Below are positions 11,204 to 25,890 of a stretch of DNA of 46,428 nt, piece by piece. The translations under genes and the position numbers were made by a program. The stretch is from Candidatus Aminicenantales bacterium. Its GTDB lineage: Bacteria > Acidobacteriota > Aminicenantia > Aminicenantales > Saccharicenantaceae. Numbering within the stretch: position 1 is the first letter of the stretch; each line of letters starts with the position of its first letter. Where the stretch lies: the NCBI GenBank assembly GCA_041736225.1, contig JBGSUG010000018.1, positions 1 to 46,428 of the forward strand, written 5' to 3'. The notes beneath the pieces were generated by a model. The model was not told the DNA's origin. It searched no databases and was given only the letters and a program-made list of their open reading frames with translations.

Positions 11204-12922
11204 TCAGCGGTCCGGCCAGAAACCCGCATATTCGTGAGCACCGATGTCGGAAGCTGGTCCATGGAGGACCCGCCGACCCCTGGAATCGCGGACCAGCCAG
11301 ACGGGGGCTCGCACTCGCCAGTTTGAGGGCTCGGTCAGGTGGATAACCTTCCGTCCGTAGTCGATCGACTTGATCTGAACGGTATTGTCGACGGACCCGA
11401 CGGCGATCCAGTCCGCCCCGACATCTGAAAGCGCCGAGCCCCAGGTCCCGTCCTGAAAGAAGAGAGGATCGGCGACAACGAGCCTCGTGGATCCGATGCC
11501 GGTCTCTTTCGCCTCCGTGAGGGGGACTCCTCTATCGATACACCGGGAATCCTTTTGGATCTGCAAGTCGGGGAGGATAGGGCTGAGCTTGTCCGTCATG
11601 TCCGGATCGACAAAACCGGGCTTGCCGTTAAAATTATTGGCATAAACGATTTGCGGGAGGATGTTGTCCGAGCCGACGCGCCACTCGTTGTAATTGTCGC
11701 TGACGATATTGTTCTTGATGACGATATCCTGGGGCCAATCGTCATGGGAGCGGTAGGACCAGATGCAGATCCCATGCTTGAATTGCTTGTCGATGCCGGG
11801 ATCGCCGAAGCCGTTGCGATAGATGGTGTTATTGTACACCCTGGCCCAGCTGCCGCTCCGGACCGGGCTGTCATACACGGCCTGCATTTTGCTGTAGAAA
11901 CCCATACCGCCGTTGCCGTAGATGTCGTTGTAGCGGGCGACCGTGTGGGCCCCGGCGTTCTCTATCCCGCACGATCCGTCGTCGTCCGGCGGCGTCCCGG
12001 CGTAGCCGATACGGTTCCCTTCGATCAGGGTGTGGTGGGCGGTGCCGGGGCCGTCTCCGGCATTCGTGACGTGGATGCACCTGTTCCCGAAATAGCCGCT
12101 GAGCGGCGTGTTCTCAGCAGCTTTGGCCGTGTCCGCGAACCAGGCTTCTTCGTTATGGAAGACGTTGTTCCTGACGACGTTGAACTTCCCGCCTATGTCC
12201 AGGTTGTCGTGGCCGCCGTAGAAGAACACATTGTCCTCGAAGGTGTTGTGGGCGGAGGGATCGGACTTGCCGCCCGAGATCCTGACGGTCCCGCTGTCGT
12301 TTCCCCCGGAGATGCTGCCGTACCTCGAGAAGACGTTATGGTGGAGCCAGTTGTGGTTCGAGCCCTGACCTTCGCCGCGAAGCCCCGTGCCGAGATTCGA
12401 GATGAGGCCCAGCGAGTAGATGTGGGAGCTTCGATCGAACGTGCAGTGGGCGATCTCGTTGTAACTGGACCCGTAGCCGATCCAGAAGAAAGCCAGAGAG
12501 CCGCGGCTGACCAACCCGATGACCCGGATGAAGCTTCTCCCGTCGAGCCTGATGGCCCAGCGTCCCTTGGCCTCCGTGTCAACGATGAACAGCGGCGTTT
12601 CGCCTTGATGCCGCACGAAGGTGATCGGGCTCTCCCGGGTCCCCGAATGAGCCGGAGCAATGGATGAGTCATAGGTTCCGCCGCGGAGATAGACCGTGTC
12701 CCCGGCCATCGCTTTGGCGTTGGCGGTGGCTAGAGAAGCGCACGCCGGCCCCGACAGGGGAGTTTGGTTGCGGGCGTCTGACCAGGCCGCGCCTCCTGTT
12801 GGGCTGACCCAGTAAATATCTTCCTGTCCCGTTTCCGTGGCGGCTTGGGAGGCGGCGATTAAAAGCGATAAAATCAGGACGGCCATCATCCGAAGGGCGG
12901 ATCCGACGTCCCTCCTGTACAT
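11204..12922 (-). CDS. Secreted right-handed parallel beta-helix protein, paralogue of the C-terminal domain of 7928-10936
   Basis: Signal peptide MMAVLILSLLIAASQA. Long near-identical runs with the neighbour, for example LIEGNRIG[FY]AGTPPDDDGSCGIENAGAHTV, VRSGSW[GA]RVYNN, FKHGICIWSY and NEWRVGS[SD]NILPQ. ATG 12922 is preferred (ATG 12889 also possible); the tracked start 13015 adds a non-signal-like extension. Confidence 0.85.
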   Translation of the reverse strand: MYRRDVGSALRMMAVLILSLLIAASQAATETGQEDIYWVSPTGGAAWSDARNQTPLSGPACASLATANAKAMAGDTVYLRGGTYDSSIAPAHSGTRESPITFVRHQGETPLFIVDTEAKGRWAIRLDGRSFIRVIGLVSRGSLAFFWIGYGSSYNEIAHCTFDRSSHIYSLGLISNLGTGLRGEGQGSNHNWLHHNVFSRYGSISGGNDSGTVRISGGKSDPSAHNTFEDNVFFYGGHDNLDIGGKFNVVRNNVFHNEEAWFADTAKAAENTPLSGYFGNRCIHVTNAGDGPGTAHHTLIEGNRIGYAGTPPDDDGSCGIENAGAHTVARYNDIYGNGGMGFYSKMQAVYDSPVRSGSWARVYNNTIYRNGFGDPGIDKQFKHGICIWSYRSHDDWPQDIVIKNNIVSDNYNEWRVGSDNILPQIVYANNFNGKPGFVDPDMTDKLSPILPDLQIQKDSRCIDRGVPLTEAKETGIGSTRLVVADPLFFQDGTWGSALSDVGADWIAVGSVDNTVQIKSIDYGRKVIHLTEPSNWRVRAPVWLVRDSRGRRVLHGPASDIGAHEYAGFWPDR

Positions 12923-13017
12923 CTCGAAAACAGCGCGGGGCTTGAGACCGTCCCGTATCCGTGGTCTCGTTGACGTCGATGGGGAGCTGGTCGCCAATGT
13001 CGCCCTGAGGGACATCC

Positions 13018-13932
13018 TCAGAAATCCCGTTTCTTACGGAGCTCGATCCCCAAGAACGCCGCCAACCGGCTCAGGTGATAGGCTCCGCCTTCGAGGCACT
13101 TCATCCAGACCCGCGCGCCCAGGCAGAAACAGACCGGAAATGAGACGGCGTACCCCCCCGCCGACAGGGCCGACTTGACCACGGCGGTCCCCGATCTCAG
13201 CAGGCTGCGCTCGGCCGCGATGTATTTCTGGGCGTTGAACCCGTTGACCAGCGCCCGGCGCACGAAGTAGTTCTTGCTCCAACGCTCCGGCGGCACGATC
13301 TCATGAACCGGAGCCTCATCGACCGCAATGAACCGGAAGCCCCCCCCCATCGCCTGTTTGAAGAAGGCCTGATCCGATCCGCCGGTCCTGTACGCGACGT
13401 CGAAGCGGAGGCCGTCCCGATCGAACACCTGTTTCTTGATCAGGACGTTGCCCGAGCATGTCTGGTTCCACTGCAGCAGGGTTCCCGTCCGCCGACGGGG
13501 CAGATCGAGCAGTCCGCTCTTGATGAGCCAGGCCGGGGGCGGGCTCTCGAAAAAAGGCAGGACCGGCCCCAACGCGCCGTCAACGCCGAAGGTCTTGATA
13601 CCTTCGTAGAGCGTGACCAGCCAATCCGGCGGGGGGAACTCGTCGTCGTCGATGATCGCGATGTATTGGCCGCGGGCCAGCCGCAGAGCGTGGTTCCTGG
13701 CGGCGGGGATGGACTTTTCGGGTTCGATGGCGTAGAGGATTGCCAGGGACGGCAGCTCGGAACGGAGACGCTCGACCTCCGCGCGGGCCGGCCCTTCGGC
13801 ATCGTTGTCGACGACGACCGCGGAGAAGGTGAACAGTCCGTCCGTCCGCTGGAGAGCGAGATCCTGCAGGAGCCTGGCCAACATGAGGTGCCGGCGGTAG
13901 GTGCAGACGCAGACCGTGATGTGGTCGGCCAT
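13018..13932 (-). CDS. Glycosyltransferase family 2 (GT-A)
   Basis: MADHITVCVCTYRRHLMLARLL, VVVDNDAEG and IAIIDDDEFPPPDW (DxD). Only the last 304 codons of the tracked 916-aa ORF are credible. ATG 13932 has GGAGGA 5 nt upstream. Confidence 0.85.
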   Translation of the reverse strand: MADHITVCVCTYRRHLMLARLLQDLALQRTDGLFTFSAVVVDNDAEGPARAEVERLRSELPSLAILYAIEPEKSIPAARNHALRLARGQYIAIIDDDEFPPPDWLVTLYEGIKTFGVDGALGPVLPFFESPPPAWLIKSGLLDLPRRRTGTLLQWNQTCSGNVLIKKQVFDRDGLRFDVAYRTGGSDQAFFKQAMGGGFRFIAVDEAPVHEIVPPERWSKNYFVRRALVNGFNAQKYIAAERSLLRSGTAVVKSALSAGGYAVSFPVCFCLGARVWMKCLEGGAYHLSRLAAFLGIELRKKRDF

Positions 13933-13949
13933 GGCGTTCCTCCGGGCCC

Positions 13950-13978
13950 AGTATAGCGAACAATTCGTGGCAGGACAA
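13950..13978 (-). promoter_or_regulatory. Candidate sigma70-type promoter for GT2 13932 (minus strand)
   Basis: On the minus strand: TTGTCC (13978-13973), 17-nt spacer, TATACT (13955-13950). It sits 17 nt upstream of ATG 13932. Confidence 0.4.
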
Positions 13979-14017
13979 AGCGAATTCTTCCGCCCCGCCG
14001 GCCGCCGGGAGAGGCAG

Positions 14018-14046
14018 TTGACTTCATGTATTCCGGGCGATATATT
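14018..14046 (+). promoter_or_regulatory. Candidate sigma70-type promoter for the enolase-like / histidine phosphatase pair
   Basis: TTGACT (14018-14023), 17-nt spacer, TATATT (14041-14046). A purine-rich SD (GGAGAGAGGAGAA) lies just before ATG 14107. Confidence 0.5.
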
Positions 14047-14106
14047 GATTTTCCCGATTGCCCCCGGCCGGCCGGGAGGCGCGCCGGACGGAGAGAGGAG
14101 AACGCG

Positions 14107-15279
14107 ATGCCCGCGATCAGGAAGATAGCCTGCCGGAGGATCCTCAACTCCCACGTCGAGTTCACCAACGAGTTCATCATCGAGCTCGAAGACGGGGCCG
14201 TCGGCATCGGGGGCTCGCCGCAAGGGGAGACCATCAGCATCTACGAAGACAAGAAAATCTGGATCGGCCCCGAGACGGTCATCCGGAAGCTGGAAGCGGC
14301 CGGCGTCGTCGGCCCGGAGATCGATCAGGCGGGATTCGACGTTGTCCTGGAGCGGGAGATCCCGAATATTGGCAGGAACAACGCCTTCAGCCTGTCGCTG
14401 GCCTTCTTCAATGCGACGCGAGAAGCCCGGACGCTGAACGAGCTTTTCAGCCTGCCGCCGGCCAAGCTGACGCCGCCCCGGCTGTGCCTGAACATCCTCA
14501 ACGGGGGCTGGCACGCCTACACCAATCCCGTGTTGAGCGATTTTCACGAGTACATCCTCGTCGCCAGGAGCACGGACCTCGAAACCGTGATCGCCGACCA
14601 TAACGAGGTCCAGAAAGCGGTAAGAGAGAAGCTTAGCGGCCAGACCAAGACCGTCGTCTCGGGCAACCCGGTCAACCGCTTCGCCACGGCCGACAACAGG
14701 GAATGCATCGATTTCCTGCTCAAGGTCCGGGACGGCCTGGGCCTTGCGGACAAGTACGATCTGATGGTCGATGCCTCGGCCGGCGATCTCTGGACCGACG
14801 GGGGGTATCGGCTGCCCATCACCGACGGTTCGATCCGGACCCCCGAGCAGTTCTACGACTATTGGATGGACATCATCCGCCAATATGGTCTCCGTATCCT
14901 CGAGGACCCGTTCCGCGAGCAGGATCCGGAGAGTTGGACCCGGCTGACGGCTGCCCAAGAGGCTTGCTGGACCATCGGGGATAACTTCTATTCGTCGAGC
15001 GCCGAACGGATCGAGGAAGGCGCGGCCCACCGGCGCACGCACGGGGCCGTCATCAAGCCCAACCAAGCCGGCACCGTCACGGCCGTCCGGCGGGCGGTCG
15101 AGGCCTGCCAGAGGACCGGGCAGATCGCCATCACTTCCCACAGATCCATCAGCACCGAAGAGACCTTCATCTCCACGCTCACCTGCCTGTACGGCGTCGG
15201 ATACATCAAGATCGGTCCTCTCACGACGGACTACTCGTCGGTCCTGCGGCTGAACGCGATCATCAGGCTCACGGAGTAG
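14107..15279 (+). CDS. Divergent enolase-family protein (true-enolase branch, atypical active site)
   Basis: By-eye alignment to canonical enolase gives: LNILNGGWHA...FHEYILV (NGGxHA..QEFMI), LMVDASAGD (metal Asp), ILEDPFREQDPESW (IEDPF), IGDNFYSS (GDDL), VIKPNQAGT (KxNQIGT), ITSHRSISTEET (SHRSGETED) and YIKIGP (QIKTG). ATG 14107 is preferred over tracked 14026 because of the SD and the N-terminal MPAIRKIACRRILNS, which resembles the enolase N-terminus. Confidence 0.75.
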   Translation: MPAIRKIACRRILNSHVEFTNEFIIELEDGAVGIGGSPQGETISIYEDKKIWIGPETVIRKLEAAGVVGPEIDQAGFDVVLEREIPNIGRNNAFSLSLAFFNATREARTLNELFSLPPAKLTPPRLCLNILNGGWHAYTNPVLSDFHEYILVARSTDLETVIADHNEVQKAVREKLSGQTKTVVSGNPVNRFATADNRECIDFLLKVRDGLGLADKYDLMVDASAGDLWTDGGYRLPITDGSIRTPEQFYDYWMDIIRQYGLRILEDPFREQDPESWTRLTAAQEACWTIGDNFYSSSAERIEEGAAHRRTHGAVIKPNQAGTVTAVRRAVEACQRTGQIAITSHRSISTEETFISTLTCLYGVGYIKIGPLTTDYSSVLRLNAIIRLTE

Positions 15280-15285
15280 ACTATC

Positions 15286-15912
15286 ATGCCGGTCCATACC
15301 ACCATCAGCACAATGCGGCACGCGCATACCCGTTACAACGCCGAGAAGAGGTACGCCGGGACCATCGACATCCCCCTGAGCCCGCTCGGCGTGCGGGACG
15401 CCCGGAAGGCGGCGGCGAAGCTGGCCGGGGCGGGCTTCGACGTGGTGGTGACGTCGACCCAGAAAAGGGCCTATCAAACGGCCGAGATACTGTTCGGGGA
15501 CAGGGTCCGCATCGTCCGGAACAAGCTCTGCAACGAACGCCGGTTCGGGGTGATGGAGGGATTGACCTGGGACGACATCCAGACCCTCGATCCCCCCATC
15601 CTCATGATCCGGGTCGGGGCGGACTTGCACACCGTCAATCCCCGGGGCGGAGAACCGTTCGAGGAGGTCTGGGAGAGGGCCAAGAAGTTCCACCGGTTCG
15701 TATTCGAGAAATACGCCGGCTCGGACGTCCTCGTCGTCTCCCACGGGGTGTTCCTGCAGATGTTCCACGGCGTGCTCAGGGGTTTGAACTGCATCGAATC
15801 CCTAACCAGTTATCCGGCCAACCTCGAGATGGACCGGTTCCGCTTCGTCGGCCGCCGTCTGGCGGACGAGGAAGTCGTGAGACTGTCCGACGCCGTTCTT
15901 TTCAAATGGTAG
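15286..15912 (+). CDS. Histidine phosphatase family protein (cofactor-dependent phosphoglycerate-mutase-like)
   Basis: Catalytic RHA-x-T motif (TMRHAHTRYN), TSTQKRAYQTAEIL, and a second His in VVSHGVFLQM. Starts 7 nt after the enolase-like stop. Confidence 0.8.
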   Translation: MPVHTTISTMRHAHTRYNAEKRYAGTIDIPLSPLGVRDARKAAAKLAGAGFDVVVTSTQKRAYQTAEILFGDRVRIVRNKLCNERRFGVMEGLTWDDIQTLDPPILMIRVGADLHTVNPRGGEPFEEVWERAKKFHRFVFEKYAGSDVLVVSHGVFLQMFHGVLRGLNCIESLTSYPANLEMDRFRFVGRRLADEEVVRLSDAVLFKW

Positions 15913-15933: not shown

Positions 15934-16830
15934 TCACATGAGCTTGGCTGGCAGCCGTATCAGATCGCCCATGATGTTCTGGGCCAAGTCCGTGATATAG
16001 ATATCGATCCCTCCGTTCGGCGAAAAAGTCATCTCGCCGAAATAGGCCCGGCCCCCGACGCTGAAGAAGTCCATGCGGACGAAGGGGAACGGCTTCGAGA
16101 GCTTTTCGGCCGCCGCGATGATCTCTTCGTAGGCGTCCGGTTTGGGGATGTCCCGGTTGGCCGGGAGGCTCGTCTTGCTGTACGCGAGCTTCTTCGTCCA
16201 GCCCAAATCGTAGAAATCGTAATTCGCCCGCTTCTCGTTCCTGTCGGTGCAGGCCATGGTGCAATGGGCCCGCCCGTCGAAGCAATAGACCTTGTAGTCG
16301 CTGACGGGCTTGCCGGAGGGGTCCTGGAGCAAGGCCTCGCAGATGATCCGGGGGACGATCGAGGCGTAGTGGAGCTCTCCCACGATCTGACTGATGTCGG
16401 TCTTCATCCACGTCCGCAGCTTGCTTTTCGTGGCTTCGATGTCGAGACGGGCCTTGTCCTTGCAGAAGATGTTGAAGCCGCACCCGTGCGTCGCCTTCAG
16501 GACGAACTGGTTCGGGAGCCGGCTAAAGTCGATCTCTTCGACGTGCCCATAGACCCCGTAGAGCTCTTTCAGCAGACTCCCCATGCCGTTCTCTTCCAGA
16601 TAGGAGCGTACGGCGTACTTGTCGGCACACCGGACCTTGAGCGGATGGCGCCAATAGAGATTGAGCCAGAGGAGCTTCTCGTCGAACGTCTTCGGGTCCT
16701 TCGTGTTGAACCACTTGCCGGTGGAGCGGTGATAGCGGTAATGGGTCAACAGCAGGGGCGAAACCCGCAGAATGCAGCGGGCCAGCATGTCGCCGAACTT
16801 TTCCTTGAGCCGGTGCGAAGTCACTGTCAT
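15934..16830 (-). CDS. TupA-like ATP-grasp amidoligase (teichuronopeptide-type)
   Basis: TFDEKLLWLNLYWRHPL, ADKYAVRSYL, FVLKATHGCGFNIFCKDK, DYKVYCFDGRA and FVRMDFFSVGGRAYFGEMTFSP. ATG 16830 forms an ATGA overlap with the upstream stop; the tracked 17178 start overlaps the upstream gene. Confidence 0.85.
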   Translation of the reverse strand: MTVTSHRLKEKFGDMLARCILRVSPLLLTHYRYHRSTGKWFNTKDPKTFDEKLLWLNLYWRHPLKVRCADKYAVRSYLEENGMGSLLKELYGVYGHVEEIDFSRLPNQFVLKATHGCGFNIFCKDKARLDIEATKSKLRTWMKTDISQIVGELHYASIVPRIICEALLQDPSGKPVSDYKVYCFDGRAHCTMACTDRNEKRANYDFYDLGWTKKLAYSKTSLPANRDIPKPDAYEEIIAAAEKLSKPFPFVRMDFFSVGGRAYFGEMTFSPNGGIDIYITDLAQNIMGDLIRLPAKLM

Positions 16831-17762
16831 ACCCATTCCGGATTCGAGCCCCACTTTTCGCCGAGGGTCTCGTCCAGGCTGACGATATCGAAGGAGCGGA
16901 AAAGCTCGACACCGACGGGATAGGGCGTCAGCTCTCCGAAATAGAGCTTGTCCTGGAGGCTGTAGAGATCGACTCTCACGAAGTTGAAGCCTTCGGCCAG
17001 GGACTCCGCCAATCGCAGCATGGCCGCGAAGTTCCGCGGCTTGGGAGGGTCGATGTCGTGCTGCTTGAATCCGGGCCTGAAACGGAGCCGGACGAAATCC
17101 CTGTCGACGGAGACGGATCGTGGGTTCTTGTGCCGGTCGAAATGGACCGTGATGAGCTCCGTCCGTCCCGAGAAACAATAGAATTTATAGTCGGTCGGCG
17201 GCTGACCGTGATCGTCGATGTATTCCTCGATGAGGATCAGCGGCCTGATGTTCTTGTAGCCCCAGGCGATCCCCAGATAGGTGTCTTCCGCATAGTTCTC
17301 CGCGAGCCATTTTTTCAGCTTCGCAGCGATGGCGCGGCGGTCGGCCCGCCCCTTATCCGTGACCAGGACGTTGTATTGACAGCCGTGATTCGTTTTGATC
17401 ACGAACCTGTCCGGGAGCCGGTCGTAGGGGATCGCCTCGGGTCTGTCCCCGCTCCACAGGAGGGGGATGAGATGGTCCGTCCCCGCCTTTTTCGCGACAT
17501 AGTCGCGGACGAGGAGCTTGTCCGATATCGTGGTCAGCAACGGATGGCGGGACAACAGCATCCGGCTCCAGAGCTTTTCTCCGAAACGGCGGGGGCTGAT
17601 AAAATTTGGCCAGTAGTGATAGACGGCCAGAAAGGCGATCGCACACATCCCCCGCAGCAGCGGATCGGCTGGCCTGTCCTTCAGGAAGAGCCGGGCGTAG
17701 GTCCGGACGAGGGGATAATAGACGGATTTGAAGAGCTTTTTCGTGTAGTCGATATAAACCAA
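16827..17762 (-). CDS. TupA-like ATP-grasp amidoligase, tandem paralogue
   Basis: RFGEKLWSRMLLSRHPL, SDKLLVRDYV, FVIKTNHGCQYNVLVTDK, DYKFYCFSGRT and FVRVDLYSLQDKLYFGELTPYP. The TTG start at 17762 is uncertain. Confidence 0.8.
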   Translation of the reverse strand: MVYIDYTKKLFKSVYYPLVRTYARLFLKDRPADPLLRGMCAIAFLAVYHYWPNFISPRRFGEKLWSRMLLSRHPLLTTISDKLLVRDYVAKKAGTDHLIPLLWSGDRPEAIPYDRLPDRFVIKTNHGCQYNVLVTDKGRADRRAIAAKLKKWLAENYAEDTYLGIAWGYKNIRPLILIEEYIDDHGQPPTDYKFYCFSGRTELITVHFDRHKNPRSVSVDRDFVRLRFRPGFKQHDIDPPKPRNFAAMLRLAESLAEGFNFVRVDLYSLQDKLYFGELTPYPVGVELFRSFDIVSLDETLGEKWGSNPEWV

Positions 17763-24033: not shown

Positions 24034-24560
24034 TCTTCACCGAAACGAGGCTCCGGGGCGCTTTTCTCGTCGACATCGAGAGGCACGAGGACGAACGTGG
24101 ATTTTTCGCCCGGTCCTGGTGCCGCCGGGAGTTCGAGGCGCACGGCCTGAATCCCGGGATCGCCCAATGCAACGTCTCTTTCAACGTCCGGAAGGGGACT
24201 CTCCGGGGGATGCACTACCAGATCGCGCCCTTCGAGGAGGCCAAGCTCGTCCGCTGCACCAGGGGCTCTCTCTGCGACGTTATCGTCGATCTGCGGCCCG
24301 ATTCGCCCACGTTCCGGCAGCACGTGAGCGAGGTGCTGACCGCGGAGAACCGGCGCATGCTCTTTGTGCCCGAGGGTTTCGCCCACGGATTCCTGACGCT
24401 CGAGGACGGGACGGAGGTCTTCTACCAGATGTCCGCGTATCATGCGCCGGAGCGGGGGAGAGGTTTCCGCTGGAACGATCCGGCCTTCGGCATCCCTTGG
24501 CCGGCCGAGGTCGAGGTCATCTCGGAGCGGGACAGGCGTTATCCCGATTTCGGCGGCTGA
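24030..24560 (+). CDS. NDP-4-dehydro-6-deoxyhexose 3,5-epimerase (RmlC-like cupin)
   Basis: DERGFFARSW, GTLRGMHYQ, AKLVRCTRGSLCDVIVDLR and VPEGFAHGF. ATG 24030 forms an ATGA overlap with the upstream stop. Confidence 0.85.
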   Translation: MIFTETRLRGAFLVDIERHEDERGFFARSWCRREFEAHGLNPGIAQCNVSFNVRKGTLRGMHYQIAPFEEAKLVRCTRGSLCDVIVDLRPDSPTFRQHVSEVLTAENRRMLFVPEGFAHGFLTLEDGTEVFYQMSAYHAPERGRGFRWNDPAFGIPWPAEVEVISERDRRYPDFGG

Positions 24561-24573
24561 TGGGACCCGCACG

Positions 24574-25890
24574 ATGAACCTGAACGAACAGTCCGGATCC
24601 GCGGGCGGGGCGGGGATCGGCGTCGAGATCCATAGCCTTGTGGCGGAGCTTTTCCCGATCTGCCGGAGCATCACGGGAGACGGGTTCCGCAAGACCCTGG
24701 AGATCCTCGGACGGCACATCCCGATGACGGTCCACGAGGTCCCGTCGGGCACGCGTGTTTTCGATTGGACCGTGCCGAAGGAATGGAACATCCGGGATGC
24801 TTTCATCAAGGACCGCACAGGGGAGAGGATCGTCGATTTCCAGAGATCGAACCTCCATGTCGTCAGCTACAGCCGTCCCGTTCGCGCGTTCCTGCCCCTG
24901 GCGGAGCTGAAGAAGCATCTCCATACCCTGCCGGGCCAACCGGGCCTCGTCCCTTACAAGACCGCTTATTATTCGGAAGATTGGGGTTTCTGCCTGAGTC
25001 ACGGCCAACTTCTCGGCCTCGAGGAGGGTGATTACGAAGTCGTCATCGACTCCACGTTGGAGGACGGATCTCTGACCTACGGGGAATCCTTTCTCAAGGG
25101 CGCGACGGAGGACGAGATCCTCGTTTCGGTCCATGCCTGCCACCCTTCGCTCGCCAACGACAACCTCTCGGGCGTCGGTCTGGCGACGATGCTGGCCAGG
25201 CACCTGGGAACGCTTGATCGCAGGTTTTCCTACCGGTTCCTGTTCATCCCCGGCACGATCGGGGCGATCACCTGGCTCTGCTTGAACGAGGGAAAGGTCG
25301 GGAAGATCAAGGCGGGCCTTGTCGTCGCGGGCGCCGGGGACCGTGGGGACGTCACCTATCAGAGAAGCCGCCGCGGCGACGCCGAGATCGACAGGGCCGC
25401 AGCGCACGTCCTTGGGCGCGCCGACCGGCCGGGCCGACTCCTGGATTTCCGCCCCTACGGGTACGACGAACGCCAATATTGCTCTCCCGGATTCGACCTT
25501 CCGGTCGGACGGTTCTCCAGAACCCCGTTCGGCGAATATCTGGAATACCACACGTCCGGGGACGACATGACCTTTGTTTCGGCCGGCTCATTGGCCGACA
25601 GCTTTAGGAAGATCCTGGGCATCTTCGAGCTGCTCGAGGGGAACCGGACCTACCGGAATGTGAACCCGAAAGGCGAGCCTCAACTCGGTAAGCGCGGCCT
25701 CTACGCGTCGGAGGACGAAAAGAACCTGGCCACGCTCTGGGTCCTGAATCTCTCCGACGGGAGGAACAGTCTCCTCGGCATCGCCGAACGGTCGGCTCTG
25801 CCGTTCGAGGCCATACGCGCGGCTGCGGAGAGCCTGAGGCAAGCCGGCCTGCTCGTCGAATGCGCGGCGCCGGACGGCGTCAGGACATGA
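24574..25890 (+). CDS. DUF4910/DUF2172 aminopeptidase-like (M28-like fold) protein with a C-terminal winged-helix-like region
   Basis: LFPICRSITGDGFRKTLEIL, FDWTVPKEWNIRDAF, HPSLANDNLSGV and EYHTSGDD match my recollection of this family, which commonly rides in glycan loci. ATG 24574 is preferred over tracked 24442, which overlaps the epimerase. Confidence 0.7.
   Translation: MNLNEQSGSAGGAGIGVEIHSLVAELFPICRSITGDGFRKTLEILGRHIPMTVHEVPSGTRVFDWTVPKEWNIRDAFIKDRTGERIVDFQRSNLHVVSYSRPVRAFLPLAELKKHLHTLPGQPGLVPYKTAYYSEDWGFCLSHGQLLGLEEGDYEVVIDSTLEDGSLTYGESFLKGATEDEILVSVHACHPSLANDNLSGVGLATMLARHLGTLDRRFSYRFLFIPGTIGAITWLCLNEGKVGKIKAGLVVAGAGDRGDVTYQRSRRGDAEIDRAAAHVLGRADRPGRLLDFRPYGYDERQYCSPGFDLPVGRFSRTPFGEYLEYHTSGDDMTFVSAGSLADSFRKILGIFELLEGNRTYRNVNPKGEPQLGKRGLYASEDEKNLATLWVLNLSDGRNSLLGIAERSALPFEAIRAAAESLRQAGLLVECAAPDGVRT

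Follow-up and report, generated by a model that had tools for sequence, protein, structure and literature searches.

The window, as we call the whole stretch of DNA analysed here, comprises 46,428 nucleotides (contig JBGSUG010000018.1, positions 1 to 46,428, forward strand) from the metagenome-assembled genome (MAG) of a Candidatus Aminicenantales bacterium (GCA_041736225.1; 2.9 Mb, 93.6% complete, 7% contamination). Within a glycan locus it carries a gene for an enolase-fold protein which keeps the metal ligands and the catalytic base of enolase, lacks the general-acid glutamate and is directly followed by a gene for a histidine phosphatase. The two genes, and the codons at which the enolase relative departs most clearly from canonical enolases, are the following.

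14107-15279, + strand: enolase-fold paralogue of 390 aa without the general-acid Glu, member of a distinct clade (hidden Markov model (HMM) matches, alignments, AlphaFold2 (AF2) model and Foldseek)
14227-14232, + strand: codons E41-T42 of the mobile lid, invariant in the clade; canonical enolases have Ala-Ser here, the Ser binding the second Mg (alignments)
14662-14673, + strand: codons G186-N187-P188-V189, in place of the G-D-E-G of the GDEGG acid loop (alignments)
14983-14985, + strand: codon N293, which turns GDD into GDN beside the Mg ligand D292 (alignments)
15286-15912, + strand: histidine phosphatase of the His_Phos_1 family, 208 aa, PhoE/CobC/PspA-like, 6 nt after the enolase relative (HMM and PDB matches)

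The enolase-fold gene and its active site

The enolase relative is best started at ATG 14107 within the open reading frame (ORF) 14026-15279 (+); about 120 close homologues of 390-395 aa begin with the same residues, and the gene ends at TAG 15277-15279. The protein matches Pfam Enolase_C (PF00113) with 94 bits, above the gathering score of 21.5. Against the TIGR01060 equivalog for canonical enolase (EC 4.2.1.11), with its curated cut-off of 300 bits, it reaches only 118 bits (115 in the genome-wide scan). An AF2 model built from a 22-sequence alignment has a pLDDT of 90 and a pTM of 0.89, with lid residues 40-49 as the sole low-confidence part, and the top 500 Foldseek hits of this model are all enolases (TM 0.77-0.83). 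The HMM match, the N-terminal capping domain and the TIM-barrel fold place the protein in the enolase subgroup, and its N-domain has two short deletions in the alignment with canonical enolases. In profile and PDB searches the clade was claimed by no Pfam or NCBIfam model and by no PDB entry; all clusters from the ESM Atlas bore the name 'enolase family protein', and the JGI pipeline names clade members 'enolase'.

Active-site residues were checked by phmmer against PDB enolases including that of M. tuberculosis, by a MAFFT alignment with E. coli Eno and the genome's own Eno, and in a 113-sequence alignment with a table of key residues; all three alignments agree. The original prediction, made from the window's letters by eye, held that the metal ligands, the base lysine and the SHRS motif are kept and that the acid glutamate of GDEGG is lost, and the alignments bear out both statements. 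The carboxylate ligands of Mg(I), D222, E266 and D292 (yeast D246, E295 and D320), the catalytic base K317 (yeast K345), the carboxylate lysine K368 (yeast K396) and the phosphate site H345-R346-S347 (H345 is yeast H373) are all invariant in the clade. The lid histidine H136 and E148 (yeast E168) are kept as well. In contrast, the canonical GDEGG is replaced by G186-N187-P188-V189-N190, and the general-acid Glu (yeast E211, E. coli E209, M. tuberculosis E204) aligns to N187 or P188, depending on gap placement. No clade member has a Glu in the acid loop in our alignments, whereas nearly all other enolase-like representatives in the 113-sequence alignment retain it.

The lid motif SGASTG is changed to Q-G-E41-T42-I-S and the segment DSRGNPT to NSHVEFT. 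The proposed replacement of the Ser loop stands insofar as the lid is altered, but the metal-binding Ser (yeast S39) has become an invariant Thr42, which retains the hydroxyl and is preceded by an invariant Glu41. Judged from the alignments, the lid is remodelled rather than lost, the change from Ser to Thr being conservative; some other enolase-like proteins also have a Glu at the position of Glu41. For scale, the E204A variant of M. tuberculosis enolase is non-functional although PEP (phosphoenolpyruvate) binding remains, and its S42A variant has about 5% of its activity left (PMC10619443). The changes in the enolase relative concentrate on the C3 side of the pocket, namely the acid loop, GDN and the loop after H136. 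These changed states are not chance drift: 22 aligned members down to 57% identity share them with next to no exceptions, and so do representatives with identities as low as 35%.

Distribution and phylogeny of the clade

A canonical eno (629 bits) lies at C38:668-1936 of the same genome, and the five carrier genomes checked all have a canonical eno of more than 620 bits. The enolase relative is a paralogue and not the housekeeping enolase, as had been supposed. A second canonical-type enolase fragment lies at C39:9435-10283 (410 bits, model positions 140-423) and runs off the contig end; it may be contamination, estimated at 7% for this MAG, or a second true eno.

A search of 1.84 billion representatives yielded 37 proteins at E<=1e-30. 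Every full-length match among them, down to 35% identity, has the signature of a lid Glu-Thr, Gly-Asn at the D210/E211 columns and GDN, except P0127, in which the key-residue positions do not align and which was left out of the tree. In the phylogeny against housekeeping enolases that the original prediction had proposed (FastTree, 112 sequences), the family is monophyletic with a support of 1.0 and a long stem of 0.71. Its sister group in this tree, P0176 and P0204, consists of enolase-like proteins that lack the equivalents of both Glu168 and Glu211 (Q and A-S there) and retain the Mg ligands and the Lys; these proteins may represent another enolase lineage that was remodelled, or long-branch attraction may have placed them beside the clade.

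Of 401 genomes sampled from the phylum, only 5 carry the clade gene, which is hence an accessory gene. When one genome per species was scanned, 60 family loci came up, in more than ten phyla including archaea. The hosts comprise Aminicenantes, the cultured Geothrix rubra and G. limicola, Holophagaceae, Chloroflexota including Dehalogenimonas, Bacteroidales, Actinomycetota (Coriobacteriia and Thermoleophilia), Verrucomicrobiia, Caldisericota, Methanomassiliicoccales and Methanoregula. The distribution is sparse across Acidobacteriota, Chloroflexota, Bacteroidales, Actinomycetota and methanogen-related archaea, and the nearest named relatives of the window locus are Aminicenantes/Aminicenantales MAGs.

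Phosphatase, ligases and glycan-locus setting

A phosphatase gene lies directly downstream of the enolase relative, on the same strand, in 59 of the 60 family loci, with gaps of a few bases or overlapping stop and start codons, in agreement with the earlier proposal that the two form a functional unit. In the window it starts at ATG 15286 after the 6-nt spacer. The partner matches His_Phos_1 (PF00300, histidine phosphatase branch 1) with 124 bits and has the RH...R...E...H catalytic set of histidine phosphatases; among 58 orthologues R11, H12, R61 and E84 are present in 100% and H153 in 86%. It had been described as a histidine phosphatase of the phosphoglycerate mutase type, of which the first half holds and the second does not. 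Models of cofactor-dependent phosphoglycerate mutase (dPGM, about 230-250 aa) match only residues ~9-97, with 31-47 bits against cut-offs of 260-420, and the 208-aa partner lacks the C-terminal tail of these mutases. Its best PDB matches are the phosphatases PhoE (1EBB/1H2E) and PspA, the latter a phosphoserine phosphatase to which it is weakly similar, and it falls below every NCBIfam equivalog cut-off. We read it as a short phosphatase of the PhoE/CobC/PspA type and not as a mutase. Furthermore, six residues invariant among the 58 orthologues and specific to the partner (Y23, D28, R85, H115, E123 and R131) suggest a dedicated substrate.

The third recurrent element is a carboxylate-activating ligase. 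Considering the 43 long loci (12 kb or more) and counting a ligase when it lies no more than 8 kb from the pair, we found one in at least 34. Five classes occur, the class varying with lineage. TupA-like ATP-grasp ligases are found in Acidobacteriota and a few others (13 loci including the window by tblastn, plus L074 by Pfam), RimK-like ATP-grasp ligases in 10 loci, an ST-type ATP-grasp in L031, AsnB-like ligases in L021, L024, L025, L071 and L048, and PaaK-like adenylate-forming enzymes, whose family activates small free acids, in 10 loci. The window has two TupA-like genes, both above the PF14305 gathering score of 25.

15934-16830, - strand: TupA-like ATP-grasp ligase 1, convergent with the pair (PF14305, 143 bits; likely start ATG 16828-16830)
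16827-17762, - strand: TupA-like ATP-grasp ligase 2 (PF14305, 128 bits)

Orthologues of ligase 1 adjoin the pair in 12 loci. These recurrent ligases fit the suggestion that the pair may supply a substituent derived from a phospho-acid. One JGI metagenome protein, P0274 (810 aa), joins an N-terminal RimK-like ATP-grasp, 47% identical to the ligase of locus L022, to an enolase relative. It is a single sequence on a single 5-kb contig, and its enolase part still starts with a separate Met, residue 415; the fusion may be a read-through or an assembly error and lends weak support to the ligase link.

Other genes occupy the ligase positions in some loci. In sister Aminicenantes loci an AlaDh_PNT-family protein (saccharopine/opine-dehydrogenase-like, 418 aa; L010:6589-7845 (+), cluster 21 in L017-L020 and L053) stands at the position of ligase 2, which hints at opine-type amino-acid decorations. 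In the Krumholzibacteriota-like loci L039 (10078-12276 (+)) and L068 a full-length transketolase/DXS-like enzyme of the thiamine-pyrophosphate type follows the pair in the ligase's place. Conserved ORFs with no Pfam or NCBIfam match adjoin the pair in some loci of Anaerolineae and Nitrospirae (L037:9988-11607 (+) and 11789-14377 (-), L045:4411-5655 (+)); they could be a sixth ligase type or an acceptor-handling enzyme.

The gene order in the window is a glycosyltransferase of family 2 (GT2) on the minus strand, the enolase relative, the phosphatase, the two convergent ligases and then a GT2, a flippase and Wzy.

13018-13935, - strand: GT2 glycosyltransferase, divergent from the pair (HpsE/EpsD-type GT2 matches; C-terminal part of a 916-aa antisense-extended ORF)

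Most of that 916-aa ORF (13018-15768) runs antisense to the enolase relative; no more than the final ~305 aa are real, and the ORF list of this 63% GC window is full of such artefacts. The ORF 13303-13956 (+) was likewise rejected as a gene, being the antisense shadow of the GT2. The glycan genes around the pair in the window are GT2, GT4, flippase, Wzy and DegT genes, and across the loci flippase, Wzy, GT4, GT2, DegT and phosphoglycosyl-transferase genes are frequent neighbours. The glycan-locus setting named in the original prediction is thereby confirmed, and a tie between the enolase relative/phosphatase unit and glycan decoration is supported. The same prediction's link to a nucleotidyltransferase fusion did not survive: the NTP-transferase::MprF-like fusion at 2-1654 co-occurs with the pair in 0 of 60 loci and was rejected as a member of the cassette.

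Two further observations concern the loci themselves. The window encodes at 24442-25890 (+) a DUF4910/DUF2172/HTH_47 protein of the CA_C2195 family, for which modified-carbohydrate biosynthesis rather than a peptidase function has been proposed from gene neighbourhoods (PMC4000134). An rve-type integrase/transposase lies at L010:4045-4809 (-), within the orthologous glycan locus in G382, a genome of the same family, and fits the mosaic, mobile nature of these loci.

Proposed role, alternatives and known systems

We propose, with a probability of roughly 55%, that the pair is a conserved, horizontally mobile cassette which would supply the small acid that an ATP-dependent ligase uses to decorate glycans. 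Judging from the retained residues, the enolase relative would bind a 2-phospho-carboxylate, namely 2-phosphoglycerate (2-PG), PEP or a close analogue, with two Mg ions, Arg346/Ser347 holding the phosphate and Lys368 the carboxylate, and Lys317 would make or protonate the C2 enolate. The loss of the acid (E. coli Glu209, yeast Glu211) and the change from Asp to Asn suggest that ordinary dehydration of 2-PG to PEP does not occur and that a different C3 group, or the C2 stereochemistry, would be handled instead. With the changes concentrated on the C3 side of the pocket, we favour a different C3 group: our preferred guess would be the addition (to PEP) or elimination, at C3, of a group for which acid catalysis is unnecessary, or of a larger substituent, with epimerisation at C2 of 2-PG to the L-form as a second option. 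The phosphatase, in view of its invariant coupling and intact catalytic set, would then take off the 2-phosphate and free an alpha-hydroxy acid. Finally, as the neighbourhood and precedent suggest, the ligase (two TupA-like enzymes here; RimK-like, ST-type, AsnB-like or PaaK-like elsewhere) would activate the carboxylate and join it in an amide bond, the probable acceptor being an amino sugar in the repeat unit that the surrounding genes build. That the product of the cassette would be an acyl donor is favoured because the PaaK-like partners activate free small acids and because the enolase relative and phosphatase are so tightly paired.

Several points weigh against this proposal. The substrate and product of the clade enzymes are guesses, and dephosphorylation may follow rather than precede ligation. 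Glu148/His345 near C3 and the invariant lid Glu41 may represent a relocated acid, and thus true (de)hydratase activity. In Geothrix limicola, G. rubra and Bacteroidales the pair and ligase lie among housekeeping genes and not in a glycan locus, so that the product could be a soluble metabolite or modify something else. Moreover, a UDP-sugar dehydrogenase (Ugd/WecC-type) was found by tblastn near the cassette in 1 of 61 loci and DegT genes are only occasional (6 loci), and hence the acceptor is not defined by context. The same tblastn count weakens uronic-acid amidation as the general acceptor reaction.

The alternative that survives best, unlikely as we consider it, reverses the last two steps: the enolase relative would make a phosphorylated nucleophile or acid, the ligase would join this, with its phosphate in place, to a sugar carboxylate or amine, and the phosphatase would then act on the conjugate. 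This order has a precedent in Cj1438C, which ligates serinol phosphate or ethanolamine phosphate to glucuronate before Cj1435 hydrolyses the phosphate (PMC11800379). TupA-like and AsnB-like ligases in glycan loci classically use uronic-acid carboxylates, and the partner's weak similarity to PspA points the same way. However, an amine is not an obvious product of an enolase-type reaction, UDP-sugar dehydrogenases are almost absent from the loci and PaaK-like partners normally activate free small acids. Furthermore, the phosphatase tightly accompanies the enolase relative in 59 of 60 loci, but the kind of ligase differs between loci; this suggests two consecutive small-molecule steps.

Slightly less likely still is a working enolase or hydratase in which Glu41 or Glu148/His345 serves as the acid and which would act on 2-PG/PEP or a homologous enol phosphate as a local supply. 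All the other catalytic residues are intact, and Glu41 is invariant, lies in the lid that covers the active site on closure and has counterparts in some other enolase-like proteins. Yet the E204A enzyme of M. tuberculosis is dead (PMC10619443), and every genome checked has a canonical eno, beside which an extra 2-PG/PEP enzyme with a phosphatase would give only pyruvate or D-glycerate, both obtainable anyway. The long stem, and the fixation of GDD to GDN together with DSRGNPT to NSHVEFT across the clade, also speak against it.

A more ambitious version of the cassette, to which we give about as little weight, would have the enolase relative run the enolase reaction backwards and add a nucleophile other than water to C3 of PEP (a sugar or sugar-nucleotide hydroxyl or amine, or a small anion such as sulfite or ammonia). 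The phosphatase would remove the 2-phosphate, and the carboxylate of the resulting carboxy-hydroxyethyl group would be extended by the neighbouring ligases, of which there are two in tandem here. If true, this doubtful scheme would reproduce the muramic-acid-like logic of MurA/MurB/MurC with entirely different enzymes. It would also give the enolase subgroup proper its first new reaction and establish a new class of glycan decoration.

We regard as very improbable a pair resembling PhpG/PhpH, in which the His_Phos_1 protein would act as a mutase that moves the phospho- or phosphono-ester of glycerate from O3 to O2, after which formation of the enol ester would fall to the enolase relative. The phosphinothricin (PTT) cluster reportedly combines a phosphoglycerate-mutase homologue and an enolase homologue (carboxyphosphonoenolpyruvate (CPEP) synthase) with a nucleotidyltransferase, and the window does have its NTP-transferase domain gene at 2-1654. 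That gene is not co-conserved over the 60 loci, though, and no phosphonate genes were seen. The 208-aa partner matches dPGM over its N-terminal ~90 residues only and is closest to the PhoE/CobC/PspA phosphatases, and forming an enol ester would still require the acid Glu. A literature search on PhpH and CPEP synthase returned nothing usable. A non-catalytic enolase-fold protein, serving the phosphatase or the ligase as a scaffold or binding subunit, is equally improbable: a key catalytic residue is lost, and moonlighting and non-enzymatic enolase relatives exist, but the invariance of the Mg ligands, Lys base, His-Arg-Ser and carboxylate Lys in bacteria and archaea down to 35% identity is unexpected in a pseudoenzyme.

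If the cassette proposal is right, it would concern a subgroup that is, to our knowledge, treated as essentially mono-functional, unlike the mandelate-racemase and muconate-cycloisomerase subgroups. Judged from sequence and gene context, the clade is a candidate for an enolase-subgroup lineage with a changed reaction inside a three-enzyme module, and searches of the literature on enolase homologues in glycan clusters and on enolase-like plus PGM-like pairs found no publication describing it. It would offer a natural experiment in the re-tooling of a core glycolytic enzyme, a deep clade spanning phyla in which the enolate machinery is kept and the dehydration acid is gone. The clade also suggests that many uncultured anaerobes, and some archaea too, carry on their surface glycans an unrecognised decoration of a three-carbon-acid or related kind. 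In practice, the pipeline label 'enolase' on clade genes inflates glycolysis calls in MAGs, and the presence of the trio in two cultured Geothrix species makes the question directly testable.

Compared with glycolytic enolase (E. coli Eno; M. tuberculosis Eno, 7E4F/7CKP), the enolase relative shares the two-domain fold (Foldseek TM ~0.8), the Mg ligands, the Lys base, yeast Glu168, the lid His, His-Arg-Ser and the carboxylate Lys at 22-26% identity, and differs in the acid loop, in GDD and in the lid, where Ala-Ser has become Glu-Thr. Unlike glycolytic enolase it is encoded by an accessory gene, is coupled to a phosphatase and coexists with a true eno. The only other enolase-subgroup homologue that we know to have been recruited with a partner of the phosphoglycerate mutase family outside glycolysis is in the PhpG/PhpH pair of Streptomyces. 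That pair makes a phosphonate enol ester, whereas here the partner is phosphatase-like, the acid Glu is missing and no phosphonate genes were seen. The partner itself shares with PhoE/CobC/PspA (PDB 1EBB/1H2E, 4IJ5) the catalytic set and the short form of ~200 aa without the dPGM tail, but falls below the equivalog cut-offs and has invariant residues of its own.

With respect to the end product, the ATP-grasp domain of Neisseria PglB2 makes 4-glyceramido-2-acetamido-trideoxyhexose (GATDH; PMC11130364, PMC6959607). A three-carbon hydroxy acid of the glycerate type on a sugar amine is the kind of product proposed here, the likeness being one of product; DegT aminotransferases and phosphoglycosyl transferases also occur in several cassette loci. 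Neither an enolase relative nor a histidine phosphatase is reported with pglB2. The glucuronamide module of C. jejuni HS:2 resembles the cassette as a whole, in that the C-terminal TupA-like ATP-grasp amidoligase of Cj1438 works with the phosphatase Cj1435 and an enzyme that takes a three-carbon phospho-compound out of central metabolism, in a surface-polysaccharide locus (PMC11800379). There the phosphatase belongs to the HAD family and the precursor enzyme is a pyridoxal-phosphate-dependent aminotransferase or decarboxylase; here their places are taken by a histidine phosphatase and an enolase relative, and the class of ligase varies between loci.

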